Below, in pieces: positions 2,055 through 50,803 of a stretch of DNA of 64,000 nucleotides. Positions within the stretch are counted from its first letter, which is position 1. Each line of letters starts with the position of its first letter. Origin of the DNA: Squalus acanthias (Eukaryota); assembly GCA_030390025.1 (NCBI GenBank), contig CM059432.1, positions 25,546,001 to 25,610,000 of the forward strand, written 5' to 3'. The translations under genes and the position numbers were made by a program. Below the pieces are notes generated by a model that was not told where the DNA came from, made no database searches, and saw only the letters and a list, made by a program, of their open reading frames with translations.

Positions 2055-3244
2055 GAACATAGGAAACTGAGGAACATATTAACAGGAGTAGGCCATTCAG
2101 CCCTCAAGCCTCTTCCACCATTCAATTAGATCATGGCTGGTCTGTACCTCAATTCCATTTATCCATCTTTGCTCCCTTGATGCTCTTACCGAACAAAAAT
2201 CTATCTGAAAATTTCAATTGACTAAGCATCCACAGCTTTTGGGGGTACATATGTGTGAAAAACTCATCCCTGATTTCACTCTTAAATGGCCTAACTCTGA
2301 TTTTAAGATATAAAAATTGAAACGTTAACTCTGTTTCTCTCTCCACAGGTGCTGCATGGCTTGCTGAGTATTTCCAGCATTTTCTATTTTGATTTCTGAT
2401 TTGCAGCGTCCGCAGTATTTTGCTTTTCTAATTTTAAGATTGCACCCTCTTGTTCTGGATTCCCCCACCAGAGGAAATCGTTTCTCTGTATCTACCCTAT
2501 CAAATACCTTAATCATTTTAAACACCTCAATTAGCTCATCCAACAACCTTCTAAACGCAAGAGAATTAAACCAAGTTTATGCAACCTGTCCTCATAATTT
2601 AACCCTATAAGACCTGGTATAATTCTGCTGAGTCTGCGCTGTACCCCTTCCAAGGCCAATATATCTTTTTTCCACCTGTGCCCTAACTTTTAGGGATATG
2701 TGTACGAACACCTAAATCCCTTTGCTCCTCCACAGTTCCTAGTCTCCCAGTATTAAGAAAATAGTCTGATTTGTCTTTCTCGAATCCAAAGTATGACCTC
2801 ACACTTCCCCACATTGAACGTCATCTGCCACAGTTTTGCCAACTCAGTCTATTTATGTCCCATCTACACAACTTACTGCACCTTCTTACTTAGTGTCATC
2901 GGTAAAATTAATATGCAACTCTCTATTCCTTCATCAAAGTTATTAATGTATATGTTGAATAGCTGAGGCCCTCGTACAGATCTCTGAGGAAGACCAGTTG
3001 TCACATCCCCCAATCAGAGAATATTCCCTTTATTCCTACTCTCTGTCACCTACCTCCCAAACAGTTACCATAACACAAGGTTACTTCCAATTCTGTGTGC
3101 TTTCATTTTTGCTAATAATCTCTTGTGTGTATTCTTATCAAATGCCTTCTGAAAGTCCATATAAAGAACATCCATATGCACTTCCCCATCCACCATACCA
3201 GTGGCCTCATCAAAATATTCAACCAGATTAGTCAGACTTGACCT
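2055..3244 (-). mobile_element. Old degenerate CR1 LINE, 3' part; resumes at ~5468-5550 after a younger CR1 insertion
   Basis: Peptide remnants RPFKSEIRDEFFT, FPLVGESRTRGCNLKI and DVLYMDFQKAFDK; CR1-type 3' end near 2055-2150. Confidence 0.85.
2310..2426 (+). mobile_element. Mini Penelope terminal (pLTR) fragment carrying the 3' half of a hammerhead motif
   Basis: gaaacgttaactctgtttctctctccac...gctgagt.tttccagca matches the element at 26133-26140 + 29558-29624. Flanked by a 14-bp duplication tctgattttaagat (2296-2309) / tctaattttaagat (2427-2440). Confidence 0.75.
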
Positions 3245-5469
3245 CATAGAGTCATAGAGTTATACAGCCGTGTCTATTCTAATCCCATTTTCCAGCACTT
3301 GGTCCATAGCCTTGTATGCTATGGCGTTTCAAGTGCTCATCTAAATGCTTCTTGAATGTTGTGAGGGGTTCCTGCCTCTACCACCCTTTCAGGCAGTGAG
3401 TTCCAGATTCCAACCACCCTCTGGGTGAAAAAGTTTTTCCTCAAATCCCCTCTAAACCTCCTGCCCCTTACCTTGAAACTATGTCCCCTGGTTATTGACC
3501 CTTCTACTAAGGGGAAAAGTTCCTTTCTATACACCCTATCTATGCCCCTCATAATTTTGTACACCTCAATCAGGTCCCCCCTCAGCCTTCTTTGCTCTAA
3601 GGAAAACAACCCCAGCCTGTCCAGTCTCTCTTCATAGCTGAAGCGCTGCAGGCCAGGTAACATCCTGGTGAATCTCCTCTGCACCCTCTCCAATGCAATC
3701 ACATCCTTCCTATGGTGTGGCGACCAGAACTGCACACAGTATTCCAGCTGTGGCCTAACTAGCGTTTTGTACAGCTCCATCATAACCTCCCTGCTCTTAT
3801 ATTCTATGCCTCGGCTAATGAAGGCAAGTATCCCATATGCCTTTTTAACCACCTTATCTACCTGTCCTGCTGCCTTCAGGGATCTATGTACATGCACACC
3901 AAGGTCCCTCTGATCCTCCGTCCTTCCTAGGGTCCTACCATTCATTGTGTATTCCCTTGCCTTGTTAGTTCTCCCAAAATGCATCACCTCACACTTTTCA
4001 GGGTTAAATTCCATTTGCCACTGTTCTGCCCATCTAACCAACCCGTCTATATCATCCTGTAGCCTGAGGCTTCCCTCCTCGCTATTTACCACTCCACCAA
4101 TTTTTGTGTCATCTGCGAACTTACTGATTATACCTTCTACATTCATATCTAAATCATTAATGTACACTACAAACAGCAAAGGACCCAGCACCGATCCCTG
4201 CGGTACACCACTGGACACAGGCTTCCAGTCACAAAAACAACCTTCAACCATCACCCTCTGCCTCCTGCCACTAAGCCAATTTTGGATCCAATGTGCCAAA
4301 TTGCCCTGGATCCCATGGGCTCTTACCTTCTTGACCAGTCTCCCATGTGGGACTTTGTCAAAAGCCTTTCTGAAGTCATGTAGACTACATCAACCCTCAT
4401 CCATGCACCTAGTCACCCCCTCGAAAAATTCAATCAAATTGGTTAGACATGATCTCCCACTGACAAAGCCATGCTGACTATCCTTGATTAATCCTTGCCT
4501 CTCCAAGTGGAGACAATTCTGTCCCTCAGAATTTTTTCCAATAATTTCCCTACCACTGATGTTAGGCTCACTGGCCTGTAATTCCCTGGTTTATTCCTAC
4601 TACCCTTCTTGAATAATGCTACTACGTTAGCTGTTCTTCAGTCCCCTGGCACCTCCCCTGTGTTTAGAGAGGTTCTGAAAATTTGTGTCAGAGCCCCTGC
4701 AATCTCCTCCCTTGCCTCACACAGCAGCCTGGGATACATCTCGTCTGGGCCTGGGGATTTATCCACTTTTAAGCCCGCTAAAACCACTAGTACCTCCTCC
4801 CTCTCAATACTAATTTGTTCAATTATATCACAATCCCCCTGCCTGATTTCTATGCCTGCATCGTCCTTCTCCATAGTGAACACAGATACAAAATATTCAT
4901 TTAAAACCTCACCCACATCTTCCGGCTCTGCACACAGATTGCCAGTTTGGTCCCTAATGGGCCCTACTCTTTCCCTGGTTATCCTCTTGCCCTTAATATA
5001 CTTATAAAACACCTTGGGATGTTCCTTTATTTTGCCCGCCAGTCTTTTTTCATGCCCCCTCTTCGCTCTCCTAATTTCTTTTTTAAGTACTCCCCTGCAC
5101 TTTCTATACTCCTCTCGGGCTTCCATTGTTTTTAGTCCTTTGTATTTGCCAAAAGCCTCCCTTTTTTTTCCTAATCCATTCTTGTATATCCCTTGACATC
5201 CAGGGTTCCCTGGGCTTGTTGGTCCCACCCTTGACCTTTACGGGAACATGGTGGCGTTGTACTCTCTCTATTTCCTTTCTGAAAGACTCCCACTGCTTTG
5301 ATGTGGATTTTCCTACAAGTAGCTGATCCCAGTCCACTTTGGTCAGATCCTGCCTTATTGTATTAAAATCGGCCTTCCCCCAATTTAGAACCTTTATTTC
5401 TGGTCCATCTTTGTCCTTTTCCATGACTACCTTAAATCTCACCGAATTATGGTCACTGTCACCAAAATG
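3245..5469 (-). mobile_element. Young 5'-truncated CR1 LINE (ORF2 RT pseudogene) inserted into the older CR1
   Basis: ORFs 5104..5442, 4638..5228 and 3337..4299 (SGVPQGSVLGP, KFADDTK); (catagagt) tail at 3245; tgacct repeated at 3239-3244 and 5468-5473. Confidence 0.95.
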
Positions 5470-5644
5470 ACCTATGCTTCACAAATCAATACCGACTCTC
5501 TTTGATCAATTGATACCTGCCCGATGCTCAGTCACTCTATCCTGCGCATATACCTGATGATGGTTTGCTCACATTTTTTTGACTTACTTTGTGGATTCTC
5601 CCCTTCCACCCCCCTAACTACTTTAAATCATTCCTCACTGACCC

Positions 5645-5890
5645 TAAATATTGCTCAGGACTCTAGGAGAATTCTCCTGCTCTTCTTGAAATAATGCTAT
5701 GGGATCTTATACATTCACCTTTGGTTTAACATGTCATCCAAAAGACAGCACCTCCAACAGCACAGCAGTCCTTCAGTATTTCACTGAAGTGTCAGCTTAG
5801 ATTCTGTCCTGGAGTAGGGCTGTAAACCCACAACCTTCTCACTCCGAGGCGAGAGTGCTACCACTGAGCGTGACACTTAGCCAAGGCTGA
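5645..5890 (-). mobile_element. DeuSINE (SacSINE1/AmnSINE-like) fragment with tRNA-derived head
   Basis: Matches the more complete copy at 44711-45151 (ctcctgctcttcttgaaata...gggatctt...ccaaaagacagcacctcc...gcgagagtgctaccactgagc). Confidence 0.8.
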
Positions 5891-6884
5891 GGTGGTGCTG
5901 CTATAAGAGAGATGGTCACTTACTCGTGCAGAGACAGCAAGGACACTGACACCAAATGTAATGGCTAACAGCAGAGATGGGGCCATTTGTTTCTACCCAC
6001 AGGGTGCCGTGCACTCACTGCATCCACACAGACCAGCAATGTTGTTTTTTGCAATGTTGGTTGGCCTGGACAAACCTTTCTCCGCAGGTCCAGTAGGCAG
6101 AAATGAAAGTCACAGGCTCAGTTGTTGTTGTGTTGCTTCCATCTGTGGAACCTTCCCTGCAATGTGAATGGAATGGATCCCATAGCATCAAAATCCCAAG
6201 GTGATATGTAACTGCTTCAACTTAAAGCATTTCCGTTAAATCATAGATGAACATCGCTCAGAGCTATACTTGCCATTTTTTGCCAAACAGGCGGAGGTAG
6301 TATCATGGTTCTTCTCTGCTGATGAAAACTCATTCGCCTCCATTAGAAACTAATATCTCTGAATCATGGGGCACAGAAGGAAAGCAATAAAGGCTTCAAA
6401 ATGAAGAGCTATGGGGAACTCCATAAGCTGGAGGTTTCATAAAGATGCCTCTCCAAAGAGCAATACGCTGACAGTGGCCTCAGGGGGCGGGATTTTGCAG
6501 CTGGTAGAATTAATGACCAAATCAAGTGATATATGTGTAAGGTACTTAACGGGATTCAGAAAATAAACCAAAAAACAATACTTTCAGATATAACAAGGCA
6601 GGAGGACAGGAGGGCACAGGTTCAGGGATGTGAAGGGCAAGCTTAGGACAGACACAAGGAAGTATTTATTTACGTTGAAATTGATCAACAGCTAAAGTGG
6701 AGTTGCAAGACATGGTAATTGGGGTATGGGCATTGCATTCATTTATGGAACACCAAATTCTTGAATGGGAAGACGGTAGAGTTGATATTCTGGAAGCATA
6801 AGATCAAATAAGCCAAAGGGCCTTCTTCATCAAAATCTATCCTGTAAAGTAAGTAGAAAAATGTTCTTTTATTTAAGAAATATA

Positions 6885-7058
6885 GGGGTAGAAATTCATC
6901 TTGGGTGGCAGCGAGTAGCAGGCGGTACCGCCTGTTATGTGTCCTGCCCGATATACAGTTTCATTGAAGTCAGTGGAACTGAATATTGGCCAGGGCGTGA
7001 ACGCGGGCAATGCAATACCACCTGTTTTGTGTTAACCCCCATGTGAATTTCTACTCCA
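6885..7058. mobile_element. Short palindromic Harbinger-type MITE
   Basis: Terminal inverted repeats ggggtagaaattca / tgaatttctactcc, with internal symmetry. Confidence 0.6.
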
Positions 7059-9450
7059 TCGGCTCTTCGTGAATGTTTACATTTTTAGGAATTTCCTCTC
7101 GTAAGTTTAATTATCCAGTGCAAAAATGGATAAGTGGCAACTGTAACAGACAATGTTTGTGTGTGTCACTGTATTACGCGCAGTAAAATGGTGCAAGTCT
7201 CTGAACTTTAGCACTGTTTTAACAGCTACTTTAATGAGACCTAAAATTCAATGGAAAAGCAGGAACTTTCCAACTCTCTGAAAGCACCCTTACATGTACA
7301 GTGATAATTTATCTTGAAGTAAGTGACTGCTTTTGGTCTCCAGTTCTTAGCATTTTACTTATTAACCTCTGTCATCATTTCTAAACACAACAGATTTAAT
7401 ACGGATCTCTAAAAATAACTTTTTTCCCCCCTCAGCTTTAAATTTATTAGGTTTGAAGCCATTACTTATATTTGCATAATTGACATCATTATCTGTCAGC
7501 TTGCTCGGCTCAGGCTGACAGTCATTAAAAGATCATTATAAACAGGGCTGTAATGAGTTCATGAGGCCAAATGGCTGCATTTTAATCACCAGAGAATGAT
7601 AAGCTGGCGGTGGCCTAAGGGAGAGGGATCTCGTAGCTGGCGGAGTTAATGACCAAATCAGGTTAGGAAAATTCACCACCTGTGCCCGAGTGTACTGTGT
7701 AATTGAGACTGCAATTTGGAGAAGTCGGAGCTGGAATGGATATGTATGTCATTACTGAGGTCGCTGTTCAGGAATGGGACGGAAACGATCAGAGCCACAG
7801 GGAAGTTGCCCACCTTTATCAGCATTGCTGGAATGAGTACAAAAGGATTTTCTCTGTTATGCCCTCTCCCCTTCGGTAAATTGGTTTCTCAACTATGAAT
7901 GTTGTGCTTGTTTAAAGTACGGAATGTGAGCTGCTGAAGGGGCAGCAAGAATGGTTCTTGTACAAAACCAAAAAATATTGCACGGTGAAACAGTGAGGTG
8001 CTTTTTTGAGGTTAGGGTTAAGGCACATTGTTGAGGCATGGTATAAAGAGTTTTACCCTACGTCCAGACTATGTTCTATCTAGCTCTTGTATTGAAAAAA
8101 CCTGGGCAAAGGACCAAGGCAAATAGTGCAGGATATGACAAACCTGGGTTTTAATATAAGAATGAGGTAGACTTGGGGAGAGAGAGAAAGAGTAAAAGAA
8201 AGATCTAGCACTGACCTCAGGACACTAGGACATCCTTCTGGTACTTAGGAGTGCCCATCAAATATTTTGTGGGACAAGATGGTTCCTCAGTTGCTGGGTC
8301 CACTGAAATGTGATGTCAAGGCTGGCTATCGGTCATTAATGTTAATATAAGATATAAGGTTAGATAGGTACATGTCCGCTTCTCATTCTATGTTTTCTTA
8401 TGTTCTTAGTACAGATAGTGGAACATTCCCGGTGATCCAGGATCTATCCTCTATTAAACTGGGAGAGCCCGCTGCTAACATTATGTGCAAAAAGTGCAAA
8501 GATTATGCCATGTCCTGCTAATGCCATACTTGAGCCAACAAAAGGAATCCCTCTCCAAAAACAAGTGATGTTTTTAGTAAAACGCTAGTCAGTCTCAACC
8601 CAGTTCCTTGTGAGTGTGGAGCCAACAGCACAAAAGTATCCCAATTTACCATCGAAGAGCTCATTTTATGAGTTTGTGCAAGCAGGAAGAAAAATCATGG
8701 TAGCTCAATGAGCAGCTCATACCTGATGTATGCTACCAGCTGGCAAAGCTTCCCACCAGTAGCGAAAACTCAGAAAATTACTCCCTGAAATTGGTAACTC
8801 CCCTCACAGGATAGCTGGTACAGAAAATGAGGAAATGTCACATTAGTGCAGTAAGAGGCATTGTTCTGAGGTTGAAGTTGCGGCACACTGTTGGGGCAGA
8901 GGATAGAGAGCTTTACTCAACATTTATGCTGCGCTGAACCTGATTTTGATGCTGCCCGAGAAACAGGAGGTACTCCACTTTCCAGCAGTAATATCCTTCA
9001 GCTGGACGAGCACAAAATTCCCATTTTCTTTCTGACAACAAAGCAATATAAATGGAGTCAACTATATAATTTCTTGTCATTGTCACCTCGCCTGTCTCCG
9101 TTTCTCTTTAAAGACCTCGTTATCTCTGTTTCGCAAACATTATTCAAAAACAAGTGACTGTTTCTGTAGCAGCAGTTGCACAAAAGTTTCCGAGATCTTA
9201 TAAAAAAGGCTGCATATAGTGACAGCACAAGTCCCGGCCAGAATGGAGATGATTGGGTAATTCCCCCATCAATCACGGCTGATGACCACACTGCTGTGAG
9301 TGACTGAGATTGATTTTATGCACATAGTTTGTATTATGTAACTATCCCCCGCTCACTTAATTCTGCTGGAGAAAAAATCCTGCTTTTATCGGGAGACTTT
9401 GCTATAGTTTCGGTCACGAGTTCCATTTGCTGTAGCTTGTAGACTCTGAG

Positions 9451-10420: not shown

Positions 10421-12333
10421 GGATCATCAGGGAAGCAATAAATCCAATTATACCAGTTAAGCATAGAGTAATGTAAGAGTAGCTTGGGCGGCAGGAGGGC
10501 AGTGAGCAACCAGGGAGGCCTTGAAAGTAGACCTCCAGCAGCAATACTTCAAAAATTATATGTAAGGAAAATGGTAACTTATGTACACTGTGTAAGGATG
10601 ATATTAGGTAAACCTGAGCATGGCTAGAGTCAAGGTGTATTTGTGCGTGTGTGTGTATATAAATATTGATAACAGGATCACTGCCTCTGACTGCACCCAA
10701 AGGCACACAATTATTTGTTTTGGCTTTAAAGAGTAAAAATCCATCTGCCAGAGTGCGAGAGAGAGGAGATATTTCTTCATTTCAGATTCTATTGTATTCA
10801 GAGAGCCTGGCTTATATTAAAAGCAGAGCTGTGGTAAGAGTTTCTATGTGCTAGTCCTCTGCATTTAATCTAAATCAGGCTGTCTGAACACAGTGCTTTG
10901 TAAAATGAAGAGTTTTCAAGTATCGTATATACTTGTGTATAAGGTGACCCCCAAACGTTACACTCAATAAACTTGAAAAATTTGTGACTCTTGTGTGAGA
11001 CGAGGGTTAACATTACAGAGCTATTATCCAACAAAATTCTCATCTTCATGTCAGCTTCCATCCACAAATGCATTTTCTCTGTTTCTCATTTCAACCTGAG
11101 CCTTCCTAGTCACTATTACTCAGTTCCTACAGTGCTATAATGTTTAAATGACAGCTCTCCCTCCGGACTTCAGTCTTGGCTTCTGTTGTTGTATCCTTTT
11201 CTGTACGTATCCAGCTGGGCTGTCTCCAATTTCAAGTCATCCGTGGAGGACCTGGACTGAACTCAAGTAGGAAAGTTGCTATTTAAGTATCCCAGTGCTG
11301 GAAGAGGAGAGCAACCCATTGACATCTGATAGGAACGCATTTCTATACTGTATTGTTTTTGGAGAAGCTACCTTATGATGAGGCAAGCCAGCCAGAAAGG
11401 AAGCGTGCAGAATATGAACTGTGTATAAGCTCACTCTCCACATTTTCCCTCAAACAAACATAACTTTCTAGTCTTATATACAAGTATATAGTCAGGTCAG
11501 TACGCAGCATTTAGAGTCGTGCTTGAAGGATGTAAGTACCAAGCAATGTAACACAAACCTTTTAGGACTTAGCGTCAGTATTATACCAGTCCTCTTTGTG
11601 GCCTCTGAGATTGAGGCTGCCAATTGCTGAAACTTATTGCCAATTTTGTGCTGTGATTTTGGGCTGCCTACTCTTTTTAAACCTTGATGATGTTTTCTAT
11701 AATGAGCTTTGATCTATTGCCAAGGTTTCTCAATCATAATTTTTTTTTTTACTCGCTTGTTTAAATAATGAACATTGTTGGTATCTTTGGAGCACCAATT
11801 GGAAGGAGCTACTGAGCTCAGCAGTGTGATCATACAGAGATAAAGTGAACTCCAGGCCATGGCTTTTCAAATCTGGACCCTGGATCCTGGAGGGTCCACT
11901 ATAGAATCCCAGGGGTCCTAAGACAGGTTATTAAATTATGATTGCCATCAGATTTCTATATCGTTCTGTATTTTTTGCCTTACTAGCCCATCACCTCTGT
12001 TGCTGTATACTAATAAAACAATTGTCTACAATGAGAGCACTGTTTTCCTTTAAATCACTCACAGCCTTTTGTTAATTAGGACAGTGGGTCTCCAGGATTT
12101 CGCCAATATTTTCTGATGCTCTTTATCTACTTCTGTAATTTTAGAGATCCCAAGAGCGTGGTAATATTTTCAGTAGATTACCAGGAGTGAGTTAATATAT
12201 TCAGGAATTCCTTGGGAATATGTTCATATTTTCAGGAGATCTCCAGGAGTCTATTTTTTTTCAGGACTCCCCAGGAGTTTAATATGTTCACAGATTCCCA
12301 GGGATGTATTGATACTTTCAGCGATCCCTAGGC

Positions 12334-14310
12334 GTGTGTTAATATTTTCAGGATTCTCTGGCAGTGTATTAATATTTTCAGGATTCTCTGGGAGTGTGTT
12401 AATATTTTCAGGATTCTCTGGGGGTGTGTTAATATTTACAGGATTCTCTGGGAGTGTGTTAATATTTTCAGGATTCTCTGGGAGTGTGTTAATATTTACA
12501 GGATTCTCTGGGAGTGTGTTAATATTTTCAGGATTCTCTGGGAGTGTGTTAATATTTACAGGATTCTCTGGGAGTGTATTAATATTTTCAGGATTCTCTG
12601 GGAGTGTGTTAATATTTCAGGATTCTCTGGGAGTGTGTTAACTATTTGGATTCTCTGGGAGTGTGTTAATATTTACAGGATTCTCTGGGAGTGTGTTAAT
12701 ATTTTCAGGATTCTCTGGGGGTGTGTTAATATTTACAGGATTCTCTGGGAGTGTGTTAATATTTACAGGATTCTCTGGGAGTGTGTTAATATTTTCAGGA
12801 TTCTCTGGCAGTGTATTAATATTTTCAGGATTCTCTGGGAGTGTGTTAATATTTACAGGATTCTCTGGGAGTGTGTTAATATTTACAGGATTCTCTGGGA
12901 GTGTGTTAATATTTTCAGGATTCTCTGGGAGTGTGTTAATATTTTCAGGATTCTCTGGCAGTGTATTAATATTTTCAGGATTCTCTGGGAGTGTGTTAAT
13001 ATTTTCAGGATTCTCTGGGAGTGTGTTAATATTTTCAGGATTCTCTGGGAGTGTGTTAATATTTACAGGATTCTCTGGGAGTGTGTTAATATTTTCAGGA
13101 TTCTCTGGGAGTGTGTTAATATTTACAGGATTCTCTGGGAGTGTGTTAATATTTTCAGGATTCTCTGGGAGTGTGTTAATATTTACAGGATTCTCTGGGA
13201 GTGTATTAATATTTTCAGGATTCTCTGGGAGTGTGTTAATATTTTCAGGATTCTCTGGGAGTGTGTTAATATTTTCAGGATTCTCTGGCAGTGTATTAAT
13301 ATTTTCAGGATTCTCTGGGAGTGTGTTAATATTTTCAGGATTCTCTGGGGGTGTGTTAATATTTACAGGATTCTCTGGGAGTGTGTTAATATTTTCAGGA
13401 TTCTCTGGGAGTGTGTTAATATTTTCAGGATTCTCTGGGAGTGTGTTAATATTTACAGGATTCTCTGGGAGTGTGTTAATATTTACAGGATTCTCTGGGA
13501 GTGTGTTAATATTTTCAGGATTCTCTGGGAGTGTGTTAATATTTACAGGATTCTCTGGGGGTGTGTTAATATTTACAGGATTCTCTGGGAGTGTGTTAAT
13601 ATTTACAGGATTCTCTGGGAGTGTGTTAATATTTTCAGGATTCTCTGGGAGTGTGTTAATATTTTCAGGATTCTCTGGCAGTGTATTAATATTTTCAGGA
13701 TTCTCTGGGAGTGTGTTAATATTTACAGGATTCTCTGGGAGTGTGTTAATATTTTCAGGATTCTCTGGGAGTGTGTTAACATTTACAGGATTCTCTAGGA
13801 GTGTGTTCATATTTTCAGGTTTCTCTGGGAGTGCGTTAATATTTTCAGGATTCTCTGGGAGTGTGTTAATATTTTCAGGATTCTCTGGGAGTGTGTTAAT
13901 ATTTTCAGGATTCTCTGGGAGTGTATTAATATTTTCAGGATTCTCTGGGAGTGTGTTAATATTTTCAGGATTCTCTGGGAGTGTGTTAATATTTTCAGGA
14001 TTCTCTGGCAGTGTATTAATATTTTCAGGATTCTCTGGGAGTGTGTTAATATTTACAGGATTCTCTGGGAGTGTGTTAATATTTTCAGGATTCTCTGGGA
14101 GTGTGTTAACATTTACAGGATTCTCTAGGAGTGTGTTCATATTTTCAGGTTTCTCTGGGAGTGTGTTAATATTTTTGGGGTTCTCTGGGAGTGTGTTAAT
14201 ATTTTCAGGATTCTCTGGGAGTGTGTTAATATTTTTTGGGTTCTCTGGGAGTGTGTTAATATTGTCAGGATTCTCTGGGAGTGTGTTAATATTTTTGGGA
14301 TTCTCTGGGA
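12334..14310. repeat. 30-bp minisatellite, ~66 copies, with degenerate units extending left to ~12090
   Basis: Unit gtgtgttaatatt(t/a)caggattctctggga-like repeated head to tail with no unique spacers. Confidence 0.99.
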
Positions 14311-14427
14311 CTGTTAATATGATTACACTTGCAGACAGAACAGAAGTGTTTTGCAAAACGGGCACCTAATCTGTGTTTAATGTTTCCAGTGTGATTGTAC
14401 CATGAACATTAGATACATTATACTAGA

Positions 14428-17212
14428 TTATCACAGAGACATGGTTGAGGGAGGGGCAGGACTAGCAGCTCAATATTCCGGGGTATAGACTATTCAGGCG
14501 AGACAGAGGGGGGTGTAAAAGAGGAGGGGGTGTCTCAATATTAATCAAGGAGTCAATTACTGCTGTAAGGAGGGATGATATCTTAGCAGGTTCCTCTAAT
14601 GAGGCCATATGGGTAGAACTTAAAAACAAAAAGGGGGCAAGCACATTGCTGGGAGTGTACCATAGGCCCCCAAACAGTCAGGGGGAGATAGAGGAACAGA
14701 TATGTAGGCAAATCTCAGAGAAGTGTAGAAATAATAGGGTAATAATTATAGGGGATTTCAACTTCGCCAATATTAACTGGGATAGTCAGAGTGTGAAAGG
14801 CTTAGAGGGTGCGGAATTCTTAAAGTGCATCCAGGAGAGCTTTTTGAGCCAGCATGCAGAAAGTCCTACAAGAGAGGGAGCGGTACTGGACCTAATTCTA
14901 GGGAATGTAGCCAGGCAAGTGGTAGAAGTGTCAGTAGGAGAGCATTTTGGTGACAGTGACCATAATTCGGTGAGATTTAAGGTAGTCATGGAAAAGGACA
15001 AAGATGGACCGGAAATAAAGGTTCTAAATTGGGGGAAGGCCGATTTTAATATGATAAGGCAGGATCTGGCCAAAGTAAACTGGGATCAGCTACTTGTAGG
15101 AAAATCCACATCAGAGCAATGGGAGTCTTTCAGAAAGGAAATAGAGAGAGTACAACACCAACATGTTCCCGTAAAGGTCAAGGGTGGGACCAACAAGCCG
15201 GGGGAACCCTGGATGTCAAGGGATATACGAGAATGGATTAGGAAAAAAAGGGAGGCTTTTGGCAGATACAAAGGACTAAAAACAGTGGAAGCCCTGGATG
15301 AGTATAGAAAGTGCAGGGGGGTACTTAAAAAAGAAATTAGGAGAGCGAAGACGGGGCATGAAAAAAGACTGGCGGGCAAAATAAAGGAAAATCCCAAGGT
15401 GTTTTATTAGTATATTAAGGGCAAGAGGATAACCAGGGAAAGAGTAGGGCCCATTAGGGACCAAAGTGGTAATCTGTGTGTAGAGCCGGAAGATGTAGGT
15501 GAGGTTTTAAATGAATATTTTGCATCTGTGTTCACTATGGAGAAGGACGATGTAGGCATAGAAATCAGGCAGGGGAATTGTGATATACTTGAACAAATTA
15601 GTATTGAGAGGGAGGCGGTACTAGCGGTTTTAGCGGGCTTAAATGTGGATAAATCCCCAGGCCCAGATGAGATGTATTCCAGGCTGCTGTGTGAGGCAAG
15701 GGAGGAGATTGCAGGGGCTCTGACACAAATTTTCAGAACCTCTCTAAACACAGGGGAGGTGCCAGGGGACTGAAGAACAGCTAACGTAGTAGCATTATTC
15801 AAGAAGGGTAGTAGGAATAAACCAGGGAATTACAGGCCAGTGAGCCTAACATCAGTGGTAGGGAAATTATTGGAAAAAATTCTGAGGGACAGAATTAGTC
15901 TCCACTTGGAGAGGCAAGGATTAATCAAGGATAGTCAGCATGGCTTTGTCAGGGGGAGATCATGTCTAACCAATTTGATTGAATTTTTCGAGGGGGTGAC
16001 TAGGTGTGTGGATGAGGGTAATGCAGTTGATGTAGTCTACTTGGACTTCAGAAAGGGTTTTGACAAAGTCCCACTTGGGAAACTGGTCAGGAAGCTAAGA
16101 GCCCATGGGATCCAGGGCAATTTGGCACATTGGATCCAAAATTGGCTTAGTGGCAGGAGGCAGAGGGTGATGGTCAAAGGTTGTTTTTGTGACTGGGAGC
16201 CTGTGTCCAGTGGTGTACCGCAGGGATCGGTGCTGGGTCCTTTGCTGTTTGTAGTGTACATTAATGATTTAGATATGAATGTAGGAGGTATGATCAGCAA
16301 GTTCGCAGATGACACGAAAATTGGTGGAGTGGTAAATAGCGAGGAGGGAAGCCTCAGGGTACAGGACGATATAGACGGGTTGGTTAGATGGGCAGAACAG
16401 TGGCAAATGGGATTTAACCCTGAAAAGTGTGAGGTGATGCATTTTGGGAGGACGAACAAGGCAAGGGAATACACAGTGAATGTTAGGACCCTAGGAAGGA
16501 CAGAGGATCAGAGGGACCTTGGTGTGCATGTACATAGATCCCTGAAGGCAGCAGGACAGGTAGATGAGGTGGTTAAAAAGGCATATGGGATACTTGCCTT
16601 CATTAGCTGAGGCATAGAATATAAGAGCAGGGAGGTTATGATGGAGCTGTACAAAATGGTAGTTAGGCCACAGCTGGAATACTGTGTGCAGTTCTGGTCG
16701 CCACACTAGAGGAAGGAAGTGATTGCATTGGAGAGGGTGCAGAGGAGATTCACCAGGATGTTACCTGGGCTGGAGCGCTTCAGCTATGAAGAGAGACTGG
16801 ACAGGCTGGGATTGTTTTCCTTAGAGCAGAGAAGGCTGAGGGGGGACCTGATTGAGGTGTACAAAATTATGAGGGGCATAGATAGGGTGTATAGAAAGGA
16901 ACTTTTCCCCTTAGTAGAGGGGTCAATAACCAGGGGACATAGTTTCAAGGTAAGGGGCAGGAGGTTTAGAGGGGATTTGAGGAAAAACTTTTCACCCAGA
17001 GGGTGGTTGGAATCTGGAACTCACTGCCTGAAAGGGTGGTAGAGGCAGGAACCCTCACAACATTCAAGAAGCATTTCGATGAGCACTTGAAACGCCATAG
17101 CGTACAAGGCTACAGACCAAGTGCTGGAAAATGGGATTAGAATAGACACGGCTTGATGGTCGGCGCGGACACGATGGGCCGAAGGGCCTCTTTCTGTGCT
17201 GTATAACTCTAT
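14428..17212 (+). mobile_element. 5'-truncated CR1 LINE (APE-RT ORF2 pseudogene), same family as 3245..5469
   Basis: ORFs 14646..15410 (GVYHRPP, GDFN, SDHN), 15528..15773, 15840..16610 (RT) and 16719..17042. The tail ctat|gactctat is split by a MITE. Confidence 0.97.
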
Positions 17213-18092: not shown

Positions 18093-18196
18093 TATGACTC
18101 TATTAGAGGAAGGACATGTAAAATGCTAAAATAGCAGCAGTCCGTCACTGTCATACTTCAAAAAGGAGGCCAGGGTCCAAGTATATTTGAGATTAC

Positions 18197-25998: not shown

Positions 25999-26107
25999 AG
26001 CGTCAACTACCCAAAGGGAAGCAGTGCTCTCATTGCAGAAAACATGTAAAAGAAATAACACGCTGGAAAGCATCTGTCTTATGACAGAATACAATAGCAA
26101 TAGCAAT

Positions 26108-26140
26108 AGTTCTGACGAAGGGTCATCGACCTGAAACGTT
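26108..26140 (+). ncRNA. Minimal type I hammerhead motif; the 3' strand of stem I is displaced to 29558-29561
   Basis: AGTT-CTGACGA-A-GGGTC-ATC-GACCT-GAAA-CG-TT then AACT: conserved core, stem II, palindromic AACGTT, stem I AGTT/AACT. Confidence 0.75.
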
Positions 26141-28280
26141 GGGATTGATTGTAATAGCCCTGAGGAGGCAGGTTTGGAGGCGGGTCTGTTGGGAAAATCG
26201 GGAAATATGGCTTCAGACATCCAACCCACCTCCATCCCGCCCCCACCCGATTTTCCTGAGTGTCTGTTCAGCCGCTCCCAAACTGACCCGTCTCCAACCG
26301 GTGGGACAGGTAGTTAAGGCAGTTAACAGCCTGTTAACTGCCTTGCTAATCCTATTTTCATAGTGGTTTCCCATTTTCCTGCTTCTGGCTCCTGTTTCCC
26401 GACTTGTCAGAAACAGTCCAGGTTCAAGGAGACGAGTTGCTGGAGGGCATAATTTGTATGCATTGGTGGAGCACATTAAAAGCGCCCCTGAAACATGGCT
26501 GACATTCAAATACAACAACTTTGCAGTTGTAGGTATGGGATAAGATTTTGCACATCTACTGACCTTGTGACTGTTCATGCTGACACCCATCTGCAGTGTG
26601 TCATGAATGGAAACATTTCAGGCCACTTCCACTGTACACTTGCAAGATTGTTACCTCAAATGAAATCTATAGCAAGGGGATGGGAAACATTTATGCCCTC
26701 TCATCCTGGTCCTCATAATTGGGGGAGTAGCAGCCGCATGGCTCACCACAGATCTTCCTGGGAAGAGGAGTAGGAGGAGGAGGAGGGGAGCCTTGCATGC
26801 CCTGTTGTGACCAATGTAGCATCCCTCCAGTTCACTGCTGCCCGTCAACCAGGATATGTACACTGCCATGCCACACTACCATAAGCTTACTCTTCGACCA
26901 TAGGTGGCCACCATATGGCTCTGTAATTGCAGGTGACACTTGTCCAATGTCATACTTCATCACTTTTACCATCAGCATTACAAATGCAAGTCACCCTGAG
27001 CCCTCAATGCGCTTTTGCCATTTCCCAGAACACATAGGCCACACAATCAACTGTTTGACATAATTTATCTTTAACACGTGACAAAATATACCAGCAAGAG
27101 TCAGAAAAAAAAGAAACATCACCCAAGTGGGTCTCCTTGTGAGTTTAGGTGCTTAATCTTTCTCTTACGCGTGCTTCTACGTGGTGCTTCCCCTGTGGCT
27201 TCAGCAGATGTAGAGGCACCTTGCTGACTAGGATGCTGCGCTTACTTAGACACCTTTGGCAGGCGTCCTCTGGGTTTGGGAGCCTGGGAGGGCTCTTCAA
27301 CAGTTTGCTCTTCCTGCGGCTGTGCAGGGGCTGAAATGGCCATCTCAGTTGTCTCTGCAAAGTGGGTCTCTGAGCGAGGGCTCTGCAGTGACATGGTCGT
27401 GTGAGCGCTTTGAGAGGAGCCCACAATTCCTTCTGTCCTGCCAACAACATCCCTCTCATGGGTCAACCACACCTCAGTGCTGGCAAGTGGCAGGAGAACA
27501 CCTTACTGCACTTCAGGGGGGACCATGAGGACCCGTATCCGCACTGGCAGTCCTCCTCAAAAGGACATCCATGAAGCTCTGGTCTCTCTGCTCAATAGCT
27601 GCCCATCGCTCCTCCAGAGATGTCATTCTATTCTGAACAGTCACCATGTTTTCCTGACTCTGGCAACTTATTTCCTCCATGGCCGTAGCTATCCTTTCCA
27701 CTGAGGTAGCCATCCTATCCATGGTGGTGCGTTCATGCGCCATTGCCTCCACCACGGCAATGCTGATGTTAGAGATGGACTCCTCCATTCTCCCCACACT
27801 CGCTCTAACTCTGGAGGCAAACCCTTCCAGAGACACCTGAACTTGTTCCTGTATTTCCCGAGACGCTCTTTTTCTGGATGGTCCCAGAGGCACAGCATCT
27901 GCATTCAGCTCAGCAGAGCTAGGAGAGTCCTGCGACCTCCACAGAGGACTCTCCACTGCTGTCGCTGTCTCCACCATCTGCTGATGCTCACTTGTGCGCT
28001 GTGATATACCAGGTGGCAACACTACTCGAACTCACGATGGCCCCACCGAGGTGTGCGTTGCTGCACTGGTGCTGGGTGCGCTGTGTCCTGGTGACGCTAG
28101 TCCCTCAGAGGCTTCAGGTTCCTCTGAGGAGATGTCCGGCTCTTCGTCCTGGATCGTGGGGAGGGGGGCACTCGATGGTCCTGTGGGAGAGTAAAGGCTT
28201 GAATTAGACATCTGATATTGATGTAGCAAAAATGAGAGGTCGCACAACACCAGGTTATAGTCCAACAGTTTTATTTGAAA

Positions 28281-28317
28281 TTATGAGCTTTCGGAGCGCT
28301 GCTCCTTCGTCAGGTAA
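28281..28317 (-). ncRNA. Minimal type I hammerhead motif (core intact)
   Basis: Minus strand TTAC-CTGACGA-A-GGAGC-AGC-GCTCC-GAAA-GC-TC-ATAA; one mismatch in stem I. Confidence 0.75.
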
Positions 28318-28320
28318 AGT

Positions 28321-28357
28321 TTACCTGAAGAAGGAGCAGAGCTCCAAAAGCTCGTAA
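28321..28357 (+). ncRNA. Minimal hammerhead motif with GAAA changed to AAAA (probably inactive)
   Basis: TTAC-CTGAAGA-A-GGAGC-AGA-GCTCC-AAAA-GC-TC-GTAA; stem I TTAC/GTAA. Confidence 0.65.
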
Positions 28358-30032
28358 TTTCAAATAAAACTGTTGGACTATAACCTGGTGTTGTGCGACT
28401 TCTCATTTTTGTCCACCCCAGTCCAACACCAGCATCTCCGCATCATTGATGTAGCAGACACATCCTTTTGAGCAGATGATACAAAGCGATTCTCTGTGAA
28501 CATCATATTCCATTGCTTTCTGAGAGGGATGAAACTCTATTATGTCACCAGCTTCCTCTTGTGTGCCCGTCTCTCCATCGCCCACTTTCCTGTCCTCGCC
28601 ACTGCCAACAATCTCGTTTGCTGCCTCCTCAGCACTGGTCAATGTTGCAAGGGTAGGTGTTCCTCCTCCAGTCAGTGCTCTCTCCCTCTTATTGTGGGCT
28701 ATCATTTCCTGCAAGGAGGGACACAAGTGGTGTTTCAGCCACAGTGATGGAGTGAGTGTGATTAACCCCTACCATAGAAGCATTGAGTGAGACGAAGATG
28801 GGGTAAGGTGCCAAGAGGCAGGTAGCTCCCTGCGCGTTGTTAGTTGTTGCCACTGCATGACAGTGACAGCGAGTCTAAGGGGTGCATAGGCAGGATGCTG
28901 AAGTGATTCAGTGCAGAGACAGAGATAGATAGGAAAGGGTGCAAGGGAAGTAAGAGTAAGGTGGGATGTGAAGGAGGAGGCTTACAACGCAGAGTGCTGG
29001 TGATGAGAAGAGAAGGGATGCAGAGTGAAGGCAAGTGAGATGTGATACTCACTTTTGATGTTCTCACAAGATCATTAACCTTTTTGCGGCACTGCATCCA
29101 AGACAGTGCATAAATGGACCTTGCGCTGACCTCCTGAGCAATGCACAGCCAGGCTGCCTTGGTCTGCTGAGGAGGCTTTCTCCAGCCGTCCGGAGGGAAG
29201 GGAATCTCCCTGTACCCTCTGACAGCATCCAAAAGAACTTGGAGGAACTCATCATTAAAACAAGGAGCTGCCTTGCCTCTGGAAGAAGTCATTGCTTTTA
29301 AAAGAAGTGCAGGAAACCACAATAGAAAGGCTCAGGCTGGATGACAACTTTAAAAGCAGCTGCTATTATGACGTCATCAGAGGCAGCCAGCCGACCCGAT
29401 CCCACTCATTGGACGAGCCAGCGCACCTCCATGAAATTAACAAGGTACTTTAATAAAAATTGCAACTCTGCAGCTGTTCCTGCCGGAAGCGGCTCCCGAA
29501 CCCGCCCACCACGCAACCCGACTCCAACCCGCCTCGGGAATTAAAATCGAGCCCGTTAACTCTGTTTCTCTCTCCACGATGCTGCCTGACCTGCTGAGTG
29601 TTTCCAGCAGTTTCTGTTGTTGTATCTTATGACAGAGACTTGCATTTATATAGTGACCTCAGTACGTCCCAGAGCGCTTTACGGCCAATGACGTATGCTA
29701 GAAAATAGATAAGTTTTTATATTGTTTTAATACAGAACGAAGACAGAACAGCTAATGGAGGCAGAATTGGTTTAAACTGTATGCTTGCAGATCTGATCTT
29801 TTGATCACAATGACACTGAGATAACATTGGAGAAGGATGAAACTTTAGGCAATGGGACAGGCTACTGACAAGGATATGCCCCTATGGTTGTGCGTGTTCA
29901 GCAATCTGTTTAACGGCCGAAGCTGCCCAACAAAATTAAACTCAGCAAGAATTAGACAATGTATGATTGTTTTTTAATATTTTATAAAGGAGGAACACAA
30001 AGCAAAACTCAGTTAGGAATTTTAGTTACCTT

Positions 30033-43242: not shown

Positions 43243-43859
43243 ATCTAGGTGCCAACTCTGGTTTGATGTATTCCTGGAGATTTCATCATGTGATATTTGA
43301 ACACACGGCATTTGATCACCTGACAGCACTCATGTGATGCTCAATCACATGACATTCGATCACGTGACATTTGCCCACTGTTTGTAAATGTTATTGCATT
43401 TACCTCAGTTGAGTGTCAAAGTTTCACTAAGCCACGAATAAAATATTTGACTTTTTGTTTTGTAGCAAGATGAATAACATAATTTATAAATTACAGAAAG
43501 AACACAAAAGAATAGAAAGATTTAAGGATAAGTAATGTTTAAATAAAAACAACTTCTCTGAAGTTTCTACAGTATCGACCACAATGATAAACACCGAGTA
43601 AATTCCACTTATTCAACAAAAACATCATCGATATAAATAACTTCTAACTAAAGTTTTCCTACCATTTTATGACTTTTACAATACACGGCAAGTTATAAAA
43701 ATAATAATTAAAACCGAAACCAAACCTTATTCAATTCACTGATTCCCACATCCCACCACTGAAGCCCAGCATCAGGGAAGTGAGACTCAGTCCTCAGGGA
43801 GAAGTACCAAAGCTTCCTGACTCCCATGGTAAAACGCATTATACAACAGCGCACATCAC

Positions 43860-44152
43860 AGGCAACCTCTACCACCTAGAAGGACAAGGGCAGCAAACAT
43901 ATGGAAACACCAACACCACCAAGTTCCCCGCCAAGTCACACATCATCCTGACTTGGAAATATATCGGCGTTCCCTCATTGTCGTTGGGTCAAAATCCTGG
44001 AACTCCCTCCCTAACAGCACTGTGGGAGTACCTTCACCACACGGACTGCAGCAGTTGAAGGCGGCGGCTCACCACCACCTTCTCAAGGGCAATTAGGGAT
44101 GGGCAATAAATGTTGACCTTACCAGCTACGCCCACATCCCGTGAATGAATAA
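43860..44152 (+). mobile_element. 3' end of the second LINE family
   Basis: Colinear with 35960-36250. Confidence 0.8.
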
Positions 44153-45636: not shown

Positions 45637-47027
45637 TGTAGGGGGTGGAGTGGTAGGGTCAGCCTCACCTCTGACTCAGTGAGTGGTTCGAATCGCTCCC
45701 ACGCCCCTGGTTCTAGACCTTGGACTTATTTAGGGATTGTGAACAAAGATGCAGTAGACAACAGGTTCCGATGAAAGAATTTTGACTTTATTAAAAGAAA
45801 AAGGTAACAAACTTAAAACACACTTAAATGCTTAAACACAGGTTGGGAACACACGGTACAGGCGAGAGAGAATTACAATATACAAAAACTCTTATCCCAC
45901 CCAATCCCACTTCACTAGCTAGGTTGGACTCTGGAGAACCAAGGATAATGCTCACCAAACGACTCCTTGGCAGTTGAGAGTTAGGGTTTAGAGTCTTTTG
46001 AGTAAAAGGTTTCATAAGGCCCTTGTTGCCGCGAGGTGTCCGATGGTCACTGAGGCGGTCACTCTGGTCTCTTGAACTGCTGGCCTTCTTTGTTGTACTT
46101 CTTTCTGTTGAACTCTGCCTCTGTTTAAACTGTCTTCTTCCAAGCTGTGGAACTGCCTTCTTGCAGAACTGTGGAACTCCTTGCTGCTTCTCTCCTCCTC
46201 CTGCTCGTGTCGTGTGGCTCCTGTAGCAGTGAGTAACTTGCTGAGTCTTGCTGGGGGGATAGGCCCTCAATTATATTGTTCAGGCCCATTGTATTTTTTG
46301 CGCCAAAACCGCTTTACTAAATCGGTTTCGTGTTGAAGTGATTTAGGTTTCAGTTGAGGCCTGTTCATTCCATTGTCTTAGGTTTTGGCGGGCTCGTTAA
46401 GTTTTGATGATTTTAACTTGGTGTTAAATTGTCCTGATGGCTTCCGATGTCATCCATTTAGGCAGGGCCTTTATCTACGCGCCAAATCTCATCCCTTTTG
46501 TCTTAGGTTTTTGGCGGGCTTGTTAATCTGTCCCTGTAGATACTTGGCTGATTGGTTTTTGATGGGGTAATGGGTGTACTGGATGTTTTATTGTTTTCAG
46601 GCTTCTAGCATCCTGTTTGGGCCTGGGGATTTCAAAAGGGGTCTTGGATTATTCATTTTTGGATGTGTATGTGAGGTTTTGGGTGAGGCTCTTCCTCCCT
46701 GGTTGGATTGCAGTGCAAACATTTCCCAGACAGCTTGACTGGGCCCCAATACTCAAAAGATGACCACTGCCTCACCACACCCTTTCCTGCAGCCTGTGGA
46801 GTTTCTGTGACTGCAGGTTTTCCCAATGGCCTTTTTAAAGGTATAGTATTTTTCCAAAGTCATTTTCCTCAGAGTTTTTCTTCCCTGATCCTTAAAAATG
46901 TCCAAAACTGAGGTTTTGACCTCAAATCACTTCATTTAGGTCCCATCATCCCAAATTTGTATAAAAATCCAAAAATCACCCCTTTAGGGTTCTGTTCGAG
47001 TTTCTGGGGGATTTTGTGAAGCCTACA
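45637..47027 (-). mobile_element. Solo LTR (1391 bp), Gypsy- or ERV1-like judging by the 4-bp TSD
   Basis: Termini TGTAGG...CCTACA; TSD TACT at 45633-45636 and 47028-47031; minus-strand AATAAA near 45790 and TATAA near 46272. Confidence 0.85.
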
Positions 47028-48646
47028 TACTTAAAATCATTTAACTGCAGACACAACACCAGTAAATGGGAGAGTCTCATCCCGTGTCCCACACACTGGG
47101 CAAGTTGCCCCCTCCACTCGTTCAATCTTACATAAGACCATCATGGTAAAAATCCGGTTATGAGCCAATTTGAAATCCAGTTCAATCCACTCTGGACATT
47201 TAAAATTCGCCCATACTTCCTTCCAAATCCTGTTGAAGTCCAGCTGTGGGTATATACTCTGCCAAAACTCCTGACCAGCAGGTGTCTTGAATCTCCATTC
47301 TCTAAACACCTCATAGAAATCTCGAGTATTACAGTTGTCAAATTGGACCAACTCTCCCCCTTTCTCCAGCAGAAAGCTTGGAAAAGCGGGACGCATTTTA
47401 CTTCCTTTGGAGATTTCCGCATTTATTTCTTCCATCCAATCCTGTGGCATTGCCCTCACAATCTTCTCATACATGATCCCTATTGCTTTTTCCTCTACCT
47501 CCTGATCCTCCTCCCACACCATGTCCCTCACCATCGCTTCCGGCAACCAACCTGGAATTACCTTATATAACACATCTTTCACACATATAATACCAGCTTT
47601 TATAAAAGCTTGATTAAATAATACCTCTCCTTCAATGTTGACTCACCTGTTCAAAAATAAGGGCTGTTCTAAAAATTCCTCAGCCCCCTTGGGCATAAAC
47701 TGCACACTTTTTAAAAATTGGGCCCAAGTCTCTACAACCCCCTTATAAAACCTAGGGAGAAGTTTAATTGATTTCAAAAGCATATTATTGTATTCCATAT
47801 ACAATATCCCCTGCCCTCCTATCCCACTTCATTTTTAAAAATGCTCAAAACAACTCTTCCAAAAACTTGTATTTGACTTCTGAAGAAATCTCTTCACCCA
47901 TTTGATTCTAAAGGATTTTTTCTTCAAATCAATATCTGGGAAATTGAGTCCTCCCTGATTTCTCCATCCAATGATGGTATTGTAAGCCACCAAGGCTGGT
48001 TTCCCTTCCCATAAAAATCTGACACAAGCCTCTCGGATGGACTTTTCTGCCCACTCAGGAATATCCTCCACCGTCAATAAGTACCATAGCTTAGATAGCA
48101 GGAGAGCGGACACCACTGTCGCTCTTCAATGCACTTACAACCACCTCCTTTCCCATCTTCCCAAAATCTTTTTAATTTTCATAACCTTTGGTTCCCAATT
48201 TAATCGATCCACTTCCTCCCTGTCTTTCTTGCACCCCATATGCACCCCCAGAACTTCCAAAACCTCCACCACCTTAAAGGGACTTTCCTCCAACCATTCC
48301 CCCCATATCCCTTCCTGCAACCAGGCATTGGGACGTACTATAATTCACTCTGGCTCCTGAAGCTCTACAATACTCCTCCACTACATCCATAGCTTTCTTC
48401 ACTGACTCCCCATTTCTCAACGTTAAGGTTGAGTCATCTGCATATTGGTGTATCACTGACACCAGCCCAGAACTGGGAACCGCAATCCCAACTACACCTT
48501 GTTTCTTTCGCATCATGTAACCTAATGGTTCTGCTACCAATGTGTACAACAATGGGCATGATGCGGAGATGCCGGTGTTGGACTGGGGTGGACAAAATTG
48601 AGAGGTCGCACAACACCAGGTTATAGTCCAACAGTTTTATTTGAAA

Positions 48647-48689
48647 TCACAAGCTTTCGGAGCTATCGATTTGCTCCTTCCTCAGGTGA
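48647..48689 (-). ncRNA. Minimal type I hammerhead motif
   Basis: Mirror image of 49706..49748. Confidence 0.8.
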
Positions 48690-49705
48690 AGTAAATTAGA
48701 TACAGAATCTCCAAAGCATATATAGCTGGAAAACAAAGCATGTGTACTTTACAATTGCAGACCAATAAATTAAATCATCCTGACTATCTGCCGAGGTGTG
48801 ATAAAGTTAATTAAGTCAGCCAGGAAGGTACCACATCAAAGACATAGCAAGATACAACTGAGACAATGAGGTGTAGTCGCAGGGGTTCTAACGTGTCAAA
48901 AGCTGCCGTCTGTATGTAAAACGAAAAGCTTTAACATTTTTTTACTTTTTTACTGGGAAAATTTTTACTTTTTTACTGGGAATCACATCTGTGAACAAGC
49001 TAACGACGACTCGAGTCCGGATCACGTCATGTATCGTGACATAAACCCAAGATCCCGATTGAGACCGTCTTTATGAGTGCGGAACTTGGCTATCAGTTTC
49101 TGCTCGATGATTTTGCGTTGTCGTGTGTTTCTAAGGTTGCCTTGGAGAACGCTTACCCGCAGATCCGAGGCTGAATGTCCTTGACTGCTGAAGTCAAGGA
49201 CATTCAGCAGTCAAGGACATTCAGCCTCGGATCTGCGGGTAAGCGTTCTCCAAGGCAACCTTAGAAACACACGACAACGCAAAATCATCGAGCAGAAACT
49301 GATAGCCAAGTTCCGCACTCATGAAGACGGTCTCAATCGGGATCTTGGGTTTATGTCACGATACATGACGTGATCCGGACTCGAGTCGTCGTTAGCTTGT
49401 TCACAGATGTGATTCCCAGTAAAAAAGTAAAAATTTTCCCAGTAAAAAAGTAAAAAAATGTTAAAGCTTTTCGTTTTACATACAGACGGCAGCTTTTGAC
49501 ACGTTAGAACCCCTGCGACTACACCTCATTGTCTCAGTTGTATCTTGCTATGTCTTTGATGTGGTACCTTCCTGGCTGACTTAATTAACTTTATCACACC
49601 TCGGCAGATAGTCAGGATGATTTAATTTATTGGTCTGCAATTGTAAAGTACACATGCTTTGTTTTCCAGCTATATATGCTTTGGAGATTCTGTATCTAAT
49701 TTACT

Positions 49706-49748
49706 TCACCTGAGGAAGGAGCAAATCGATAGCTCCGAAAGCTTGTGA
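49706..49748 (+). ncRNA. Minimal type I hammerhead motif
   Basis: TCAC-CTGAGGA-A-GGAGC-AAATCGATA-GCTCC-GAAA-GC-TT-GTGA: stem I TCAC/GTGA, stem II GGAGC/GCTCC, palindromic AAGCTT in place of stem III. Confidence 0.8.
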
Positions 49749-50803
49749 TTTCAAATAAAACTGTTGGACTATAACCTGGTGTTGTGCGACCTCTCAATTT
49801 TGTACAACAATGGGGACAGGGGACAACCCTGTCTCACTGACCTCTGTATCAGAAAATACTTGGATAAAAACCATTACATTTAACACAGCTAAATATGTTT
49901 GAATAAAAAATCCTTATCCACTAAATGAAATTTCCCCCCAAAACCAAATGCTTCCAAAACCTTCAATAAAAACTCATGAGAGACCCTATCAAAGGCTTTC
50001 TCTTGATCTATCTTTAATACATAAGCCTCCCTCCCACTCTCTTCCATGAGCTCTATCGCATCTCGGATTGAGACCACAGAGTCTGCGATGTCCCGGCCTA
50101 TGACTCCATAGGACTGAGAGGGCAAAACTAGCTGCGGCAACACCTCCTCTATACGATTTGCCATAACCCTCGCCAAGATCTTATAATCCACATTTAATAA
50201 TGTGATGGGTCTCCAATTCTTCAGATCCCTTCTATCCCCTTTATTTTTATAAGCTAAGCTTATGACACCTCTTCTCATAGATGGGGCCAGGCTTCCCTCA
50301 TTTTTAATTTCCTTAAAAACTCCTAAGAGCAATGGACTTAAAATCTCGAAAAATTCTTTGTAAAATTCTGCACTTAGTCCATCGGACCCTGGGCTTTCCC
50401 CCCCCGCTTCATTCCACTTATTGCTACTTTTATTTCCGCTAATCCTACTTCTTTGTCACACATGCTTCTCTCATCCACCTTTAAACCCTCTTCAATAAAA
50501 GCACTAACCTTCTCCATCACCAAATTGGAAATGTCTTCTTTTGTATATAACTCTTGATAAAAGCTGCTAGCCGCCTCTAAAATGTTCCCACTTTCATGAA
50601 TGATCTTCTCCCCAACCTTCAACTCTCCAATTAATGATAATCTCTGTCGCAGCTTCTCTTGCTGTAGAAAATATCTAGTGCATCTAGAACATAGAACAGT
50701 ACAGCACAGTACAGGCCCTTCGGCCCTCGATGTTGTGCCGAGCATTGTCCGAGACCAAGACCAAGCTATCCCACTCCCTATCATTCTGGTGTGCTCCATG
50801 TGC

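Follow-up and report, generated by a model that had tools for sequence, protein, structure and literature searches.

Endonuclease-bearing (EN+) Penelope-like elements (PLEs) are described as encoding a reverse transcriptase (RT) plus, C-terminally, an endonuclease (EN) of the GIY-YIG type in one open reading frame (ORF), with partial tandem masters and 5'-truncated copies accompanied by an inverted truncated copy; the layout of an inverted 5'-truncated arm, a sense arm, a one-sided tail and a target-site duplication (TSD) is already published (PMC8557442, PMC3846280, PMC2377424; these and the other papers cited below were available to us in part, and what we say of them refers to those parts). 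The tail measures 30–40 nt, and the pseudo-long terminal repeats (pLTRs) carry a minimal hammerhead ribozyme. Self-priming has been proposed for the inverted arm and initiator-like motifs have been noted in pLTRs (PMC3846280), while the formation of the inverted end, the one-sided tail and second-strand synthesis are listed as open questions for PLEs (PMC8557442, PMC11167929). We analyzed a 64,000-nucleotide stretch of the Squalus acanthias genome (assembly GCA_030390025.1, contig CM059432.1, positions 25,546,001 to 25,610,000, forward strand; the window hereafter) containing four small insertions, A to D, that resemble EN+ PLEs in their coding capacity, layout and hammerhead, with a tail of ~35 nt. 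Unlike EN+ PLEs as published, they belong to families in which copies of 200–240 bp form a very large discrete class with a sharply defined inner edge, and in which we also observed arms of hybrid origin and symmetry of the target.

The protein of the Anolis Poseidon element PAc, a predicted dimer, cuts and extends both target strands in vitro using two RT start sites between which the tail lies, and hammerhead cleavage is not needed (PMC11167929). Our families likewise have two start sites bounding the tail, read here from genomic copies; in PAc these lie inside the ORF, whereas here they lie in a leader ending at the ATG, and PAc prefers ATT whereas the target here is TG-N16-CA. How the inverted arm forms is not explained in the available part of the PAc paper. 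The hammerheads resemble the minimal type I ribozymes of PLEs in their short helix I, an unpaired base before helix II, palindromic positions 15.2–16.2 and predicted dimers (PMC4209133). The same paper describes Schistosoma hammerhead pairs on opposite strands, 100–700 bp apart. The copy ends here do not track the cleavage site. Neither the elements nor their layout is new in kind; what is informative is the detail of the copies.

Twin priming is familiar from L1, where two target ends prime on the RNA and the cDNAs are joined by microhomology, resulting in an inversion. L1 twin-priming pieces cover different parts of the RNA, whereas here the same part would be copied from two fixed start sites. 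We consider it likely that the insertions described here were made by such twin target-primed reverse transcription, with two starts and run-off. Within a symmetric site, a dimeric RT/GIY-YIG protein would nick the two strands at positions ~12 nt apart. One of the nicks would prime at the outer RNA start site beside the ATG, giving the tail, and the other ~35–40 nt further in, giving the tail-less arm. Both cDNAs would extend towards the RNA 5' end, and microhomology or short patches of templated sequence would serve to join their 3' ends head to head, so that each cDNA would template the second strand of the other. The RNA 5' end, most likely a transcription start just upstream of the hammerhead, would be no more than about 135 nt away from the priming sites, which would account for the tiny copies; longer arms would be copied from RNAs produced by read-through from tandem masters. 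Two different RNAs would have supplied the two cDNAs in at least a quarter of the tiny palindromes. We found no published account of a run-off short class, hybrid arms, PLE twin priming or a symmetric PLE target; older subscription papers (1997–2006, on Penelope and Xena) and supplements may hold one.

Positions within elements are given as d, the distance upstream of the tail's outer end; C and D belong to family 1 (F1), A and B to family 2 (F2). Arm statistics are based on the first exact-pattern matches, on contig C1, a sample that leans towards young copies, drawn from a 3.7-Gb genome that we take to be rich in CR1-like long interspersed nuclear elements (LINEs). Loci selected for length (L001–L050, L121–L150 and L268–L270) were excluded from every size statistic. 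Grouping of the 217 F1 arms gave 81 pairs, 48 lone arms (25 tail-less and 23 tailed) and 13 complex cases. Pairs supplied 162 of the 181 confirmed F1 ends, and lone arms lying next to a TSD supplied the other 19; complex cases and all remaining lone arms were dropped. Arm ends are BLAST ends, accurate to a few bases, and genome-wide spacing counts are lower bounds for spacings of 86–178 and 200–230 nt. Haplotypes were compared in 138 inverted pairs, 106 of them with loop II readable on both arms; 40 of these loci had been chosen for being short or nearly short. The features of the four insertions are as follows.

2296–2309 (+): left TSD of A, 14 nt with 1 mismatch (10 nt, 2300–2309, exact)
2310–2316 (–): 7-nt inverted stub of A, matching F2 at the inner RT start site (d34–40)
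2318–2426 (+): tailed F2 arm of A, beginning inside the hammerhead (3' part only)
2427–2440 (+): right TSD of A
26077–26088 (+): left TSD of B, 12 nt, exact
26088–26107 (–): inverted 13-nt piece of the F2 tail end in B, then short slipped repeats
26108–26140 (+): tail-less F2 arm of B, 5' part, beginning at the family breakpoint edge, d135; hammerhead core 26112–26140
26141–29554 (no strand): 3.4-kb element lying inside B; it shows a 3-nt duplication and imperfect terminal inverted repeats, and contains C
28217–28228 (+): left TSD of C, 12 nt, exact, within a TG-N16-CA site
28229–28319 (–): inverted tail-less arm of C, full hammerhead, common haplotype
28320–28444 (+): tailed sense arm of C, other recurrent haplotype; tail 28410–28444
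28445–28456 (+): right TSD of C
29558–29624 (+): tail-less F2 arm of B, 3' part, stopping at the inner RT start site
29625–29636 (+): right TSD of B
48543–48556 (+): left TSD of D, 14 nt, exact, within a TG-N16-CA site
48557–49194 (–): tailed sense arm of D, d638 to d1: codons 837–892, 3' untranslated region, hammerhead 48685–48651, tail to the ATG
49195–49202 (+): junction insert of D, 8 nt, templated from the arm by a 3-bp snap-back
49203–49803 (+): tail-less arm of D, d636 to about d36, hammerhead 49710–49744
49801–49814 (+): right TSD of D, its first 3 nt common to the element

All four insertions, with their 12–14 bp TSDs, stand where the first-pass annotation had placed them, and its assignment to PLEs, in two families with one shared architecture, was borne out: the four are 5'-truncated copies of two autonomous PLE families. 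Exact TSDs of 12–14 nt flanked 67 of the 81 F1 pairs, and none of 9–21 nt was found in 243 shifted controls, so the TSDs of F1 pairs are not due to chance. The annotation had credited each insertion with the hammerhead or its 3' half; C and D carry the hammerhead in both arms, the core of B lies at 26112–26140, and A holds just the 3' part. It also had C and D begin with an inverted copy of their own 3' region. This is true of C, with its 91-nt arm, whereas D lies on the minus strand and, read on the plus strand, starts with the tail. A weaker version of that inversion had been seen in A and B. A has the 7-nt stub; the left bases of B match the reverse complement of the commonest F2 tail end (12 of 13 nt) better than B's own 3' end (6 nt). 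We believe that the stub of A is an aborted second cDNA and the inverted piece of B, whose right end is tail-less, an aborted tail-primed cDNA, although both matches are short; A and B would then match the two-start scheme with one arm aborted. A further 30-nt piece of F2 tail lies on the minus strand at 1346–1375, and its partner arm was not found in the window.

The element nested in B interrupts B's hammerhead. It contains a Myb/SANT-like ORF (28843–29331, minus strand) that scores under the Pfam cut-off, and we take it to be Harbinger-like; C sits between two of its open frames. The two arms of C differ by 5 mismatches, and the sense-arm haplotype is distinguished by 3 linked non-CpG differences. 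The 604-bp arms of D differ by 2 mismatches and both hold the last 56 ORF codons (837–892), so D is no non-coding RNA element.

The F1 master, at locus L031, is a partial tandem forming pLTRs, with a unit of 3141 bp and an intact 892-amino-acid ORF. RVT_1 scored 34.5 bits, over its cut-off, and GIY-YIG, at the C terminus, 21.5 bits, slightly below the cut-off of 22.6. The C-X4-C-X2-C linker between RT and EN and two cysteines within the GIY-YIG motif suggest a PLE of the Neptune/Nematis type, for which a C-X2-5-CxxC linker and cysteines between GIY and YIG are described (PMC8557442). The F1 tail terminates exactly at the ATG. A 48-nt F1 tail junction had 7,416 exact matches, a 27-nt F1 piece 20,478 and a 23-nt F2 piece 29,496. 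The protein of F2 copies is 33–37% identical to that of F1 (tblastn), and a full F2 master was not recovered. A long stem-loop with a 9-bp closing helix is predicted at 6250–6315 of the L031 master, with the inner RT start site at its apex; this recalls the stem-loop start site of PAc (PMC11167929).

A minimal type I hammerhead core, with catalysis predicted only, was found by pattern in both families; an Rfam scan returned no hammerhead match. The F1 core starts at d129 with the cleavage site at d94/95, and the F2 core at d131 with cleavage at d103. Among 386 F1 motifs, helix I position 3 was C-G in 326 and T-A in 43, and helix II position 5 was C-G in 338 and T-A in 34. The core thus appears to carry compensatory pairs across subfamilies, which are not independent events because related and twice-fetched copies are included. 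Directly after the hammerhead, at 2323–2350 of the window and in F2 generally, come a branch-point, a pyrimidine tract and CAG, usually followed by ATG, resembling a 3' splice site.

Arm truncation was not random. Among the confirmed F1 inner ends, 59 of 181 fell at d126–139, compared to 6 at d140–153 and 11 at d94–101; with unconfirmed arms included, the counts were 75 of 216 at d126–139 and 5 at d140–153, and in near-identical F1 pairs 23 of 66 and 1. F2 gave 22 of 63 inner ends at d128–141 and no excess at the cleavage site (n = 63). Inverted pairs were counted genome-wide at no fewer than 7,877 for spacings of 117–147 nt, at least 4,961 for 86–116 nt, at least 1,338 for 148–178 nt and at least 708 for 200–230 nt. 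Past the edge, truncation was continuous out to full length. The first-pass annotation had anticipated a discrete size class linked to the hammerhead region, and this is what both families have; it had also referred the 5' breakpoints to the cleavage site, and these fall 0–10 nt upstream of the hammerhead core rather than at the cut. The random truncation unrelated to the hammerhead that it had set against its own proposal is at odds with the sharp edge in both families.

YYANWYY is an initiator-like consensus, and both families match it at the edge. We take the edge to be an RNA 5' end, probably the transcription start. As the priming sites of every transcript would then lie ~135 nt from its start, run-off stubs would be the commonest product. 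It is unlikely, in our judgement, that twin priming took place but the edge marks an RT stop or an RNA processing site (a folded ribozyme, a bound protein or a 3' splice site) instead of a transcription start. In D. virilis an intron has its 3' end exactly where helix I has its 5' end (PMC4209133), transcription starts further upstream (PMC2377424), and the F2 edge has branch-point, pyrimidine and CAG-like sequence, all of which would suit a processing site. The F1 edge, however, is without AG, most centre gaps measured –8 to +4 nt, and no shared upstream exon was seen at junctions in the copies inspected, among which spliced copies were not sought systematically. Not one of the 81 F1 pairs has a tailed arm that extends past the edge while its tail-less partner does not, a pattern more in keeping with a template end than with a leaky stop.

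Outer ends were bimodal in both families. F1 tailed arms ended at the ATG and tail-less arms at d30–49; F2 ends fell at d1–5 or d27–42. Exactly one tail was present in 135 of the 138 inverted pairs, none was recognised in 3, and two tails were found in 0. One clear exception to the one-tail rule, L238, is a full-length insertion with both ends tail-less. Ten of the 25 lone tail-less F1 arms had a TSD of their own, so the inner position behaves as a separate priming site. Microhomology of 2 nt or more was present at the two target junctions in 36 of 59 and 34 of 59 cases (controls, 6% and 12%), values that the TSD finder may slightly inflate.

The F1 target is symmetric: of 65 distinct sites, 43 have TG-N16-CA placed around the TSD, compared to 2 of 385 controls, and the sites of C and D both fit the motif. 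One target sequence, apparently within another repeat, was struck repeatedly by F1 (L120, L241, L256 and others), the TSD being CCTCTATTTATRAA or something close to it at 6 or more of 70 sites; given the symmetric target, that repeat would be an F1 hotspot.

We turn to whether one cDNA or two made the arms. A folded-back cDNA can only yield a tail-less arm shorter than the tailed one, so longer tail-less arms contradict simple fold-back. The tail-less arm was the longer in 40 of the 81 F1 pairs; the excess was over 10 nt in 33 of these, and 17 pairs showed the reverse. Hybrid pairs, with two different recurrent haplotypes on their arms, made up 16 of 62 short pairs, C included, compared to 0 of 44 longer pairs (Fisher p = 0.0001; 0.013 for the older subfamilies alone), against a background arm-to-arm mismatch of 12 of 3,699 sites. 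By eye, about 6 of 42 readable longer pairs were hybrid, which makes the contrast between short and long weaker than 0 of 44 implies. Gene conversion, instead of two templates, may have produced hybrid arms. Overlaps of 4 nt or more occurred in 13 of 40 blunt or overlapping centres, compared to 2% in simulation, and equal arms met on a self-complementary 6-mer in 4 of 81 pairs, as is expected if two like ends anneal.

Self-primed fold-back, in which one cDNA snaps back and copies itself into the inverted arm, had been one of the two mechanisms put forward by the first-pass annotation. As a general rule we find it decidedly unlikely. The geometry it demands is compatible with at most 25 of 81 F1 pairs (11 of 33 among near-identical copies), different haplotypes run right up to the centre, tail-less arms insert alone, and the fixed outer end at d30–49 goes unexplained. 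What speaks for it is that long arms are alike in length and haplotype, that, among 12 junction inserts at least 7 nt long, 7 were copied from nearby sequence, and that the D centre contains a 3-bp snap-back with 14 nt copied, followed by re-annealing by 6 nt, which is consistent either with joining to a second cDNA or with slippage within a single molecule. Fold-back is thus contradicted as the sole mechanism and does not explain inverted arms in general; it does occur as a joining step, which may follow twin priming, and may have made long copies.

Several observations weigh against two-start twin priming with run-off. In the young-biased set the arms agree, with 26 of 1,731 sites differing compared to 20.8% when shuffled. 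Long pairs are correlated in length (rho 0.83; 17 of 34 within 10%, compared to 3.1 permuted) and concordant in haplotype (the 0 of 44 above), and mixed short/long pairs are scarce (9 seen, 41 expected). These last three features argue for a single template behind long arms; fold-back and the copying of one RNA twice would each fit the long pairs. The D centre can be written as a wholly intramolecular snap-back with slippage. The 341 nt around the edge contain 5 and 8 YYANWYY matches in the two families, and TG-N16-CA was found at 0 of 26 F2 sites. The in vitro Anolis work, which concerns another clade, found no target-RNA homology at the start site, as far as the available part of the paper goes (PMC11167929).

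Animal non-LTR retrozymes are likewise small, hammerhead-bearing and related to PLE pLTRs (PMC7229834, bioRxiv 10.64898/2026.07.22.740005), and those of vertebrates are proposed to derive from PLE pLTRs (bioRxiv 10.64898/2026.07.22.740005). They are, however, head-to-tail tandem repeats of unit-length monomers, with canonical hammerheads and circular RNA in PMC7229834, whereas the copies sampled here are single arms or head-to-head pairs with minimal hammerheads. That our short copies stem from non-autonomous, hammerhead-excised and circularised RNAs, a short lineage of their own that relies on the PLE enzyme for mobilisation, the other suggestion of the first-pass annotation, is very improbable: the short class is discrete and highly abundant and F1 shows a small excess near the cleavage site (the 11 of 181 ends at d94–101), but most ends lie ~35–40 nt upstream of the cut, F2 shows no such excess, junctions vary copy by copy, short-copy haplotypes recur in longer copies, including ORF-bearing ones, ORF bases past the ATG are present in 10 of 24 short tailed ends, and a head-to-tail hammerhead array was absent from the window (genome-wide it was not searched for). 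No haplotypes or junctions private to short copies were seen in the sample; occasional re-mobilisation of a stub may occur.

The window also contains a minisatellite at 12154–14314 (72 copies of 30 bp, 91% matches), two CR1-like LINE copies in opposite orientation that are 95–98% alike (3266–5469 and 14943–17153), and a 558-codon open frame with zinc-knuckle-like CCHC motifs (56861–58537, minus strand), presumably LINE ORF1-like.

Two-start twin priming with run-off can be carried one step further. By analogy with the retroviral kissing loop, a dimeric enzyme might hold two RNAs paired through the palindromic helix III of the hammerhead, one RNA being primed per start site on the symmetric cut, with mutual priming of the cDNAs replacing second-strand synthesis; we offer this as a tentative possibility. 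A young family with an intact ORF, a symmetric target, two fixed starts and a 135-nt minimal product makes the questions of the inverted ends, the one-sided tail and second-strand synthesis directly testable in vitro. The copies keep a record of the integration step of PLEs. If the RNAs are indeed paired in this way, the main role of the ribozyme would be to signal dimerisation, and the stubs, thousands in number, would amount to a fossil map of where RNAs had their 5' ends and of how RNAs were paired.

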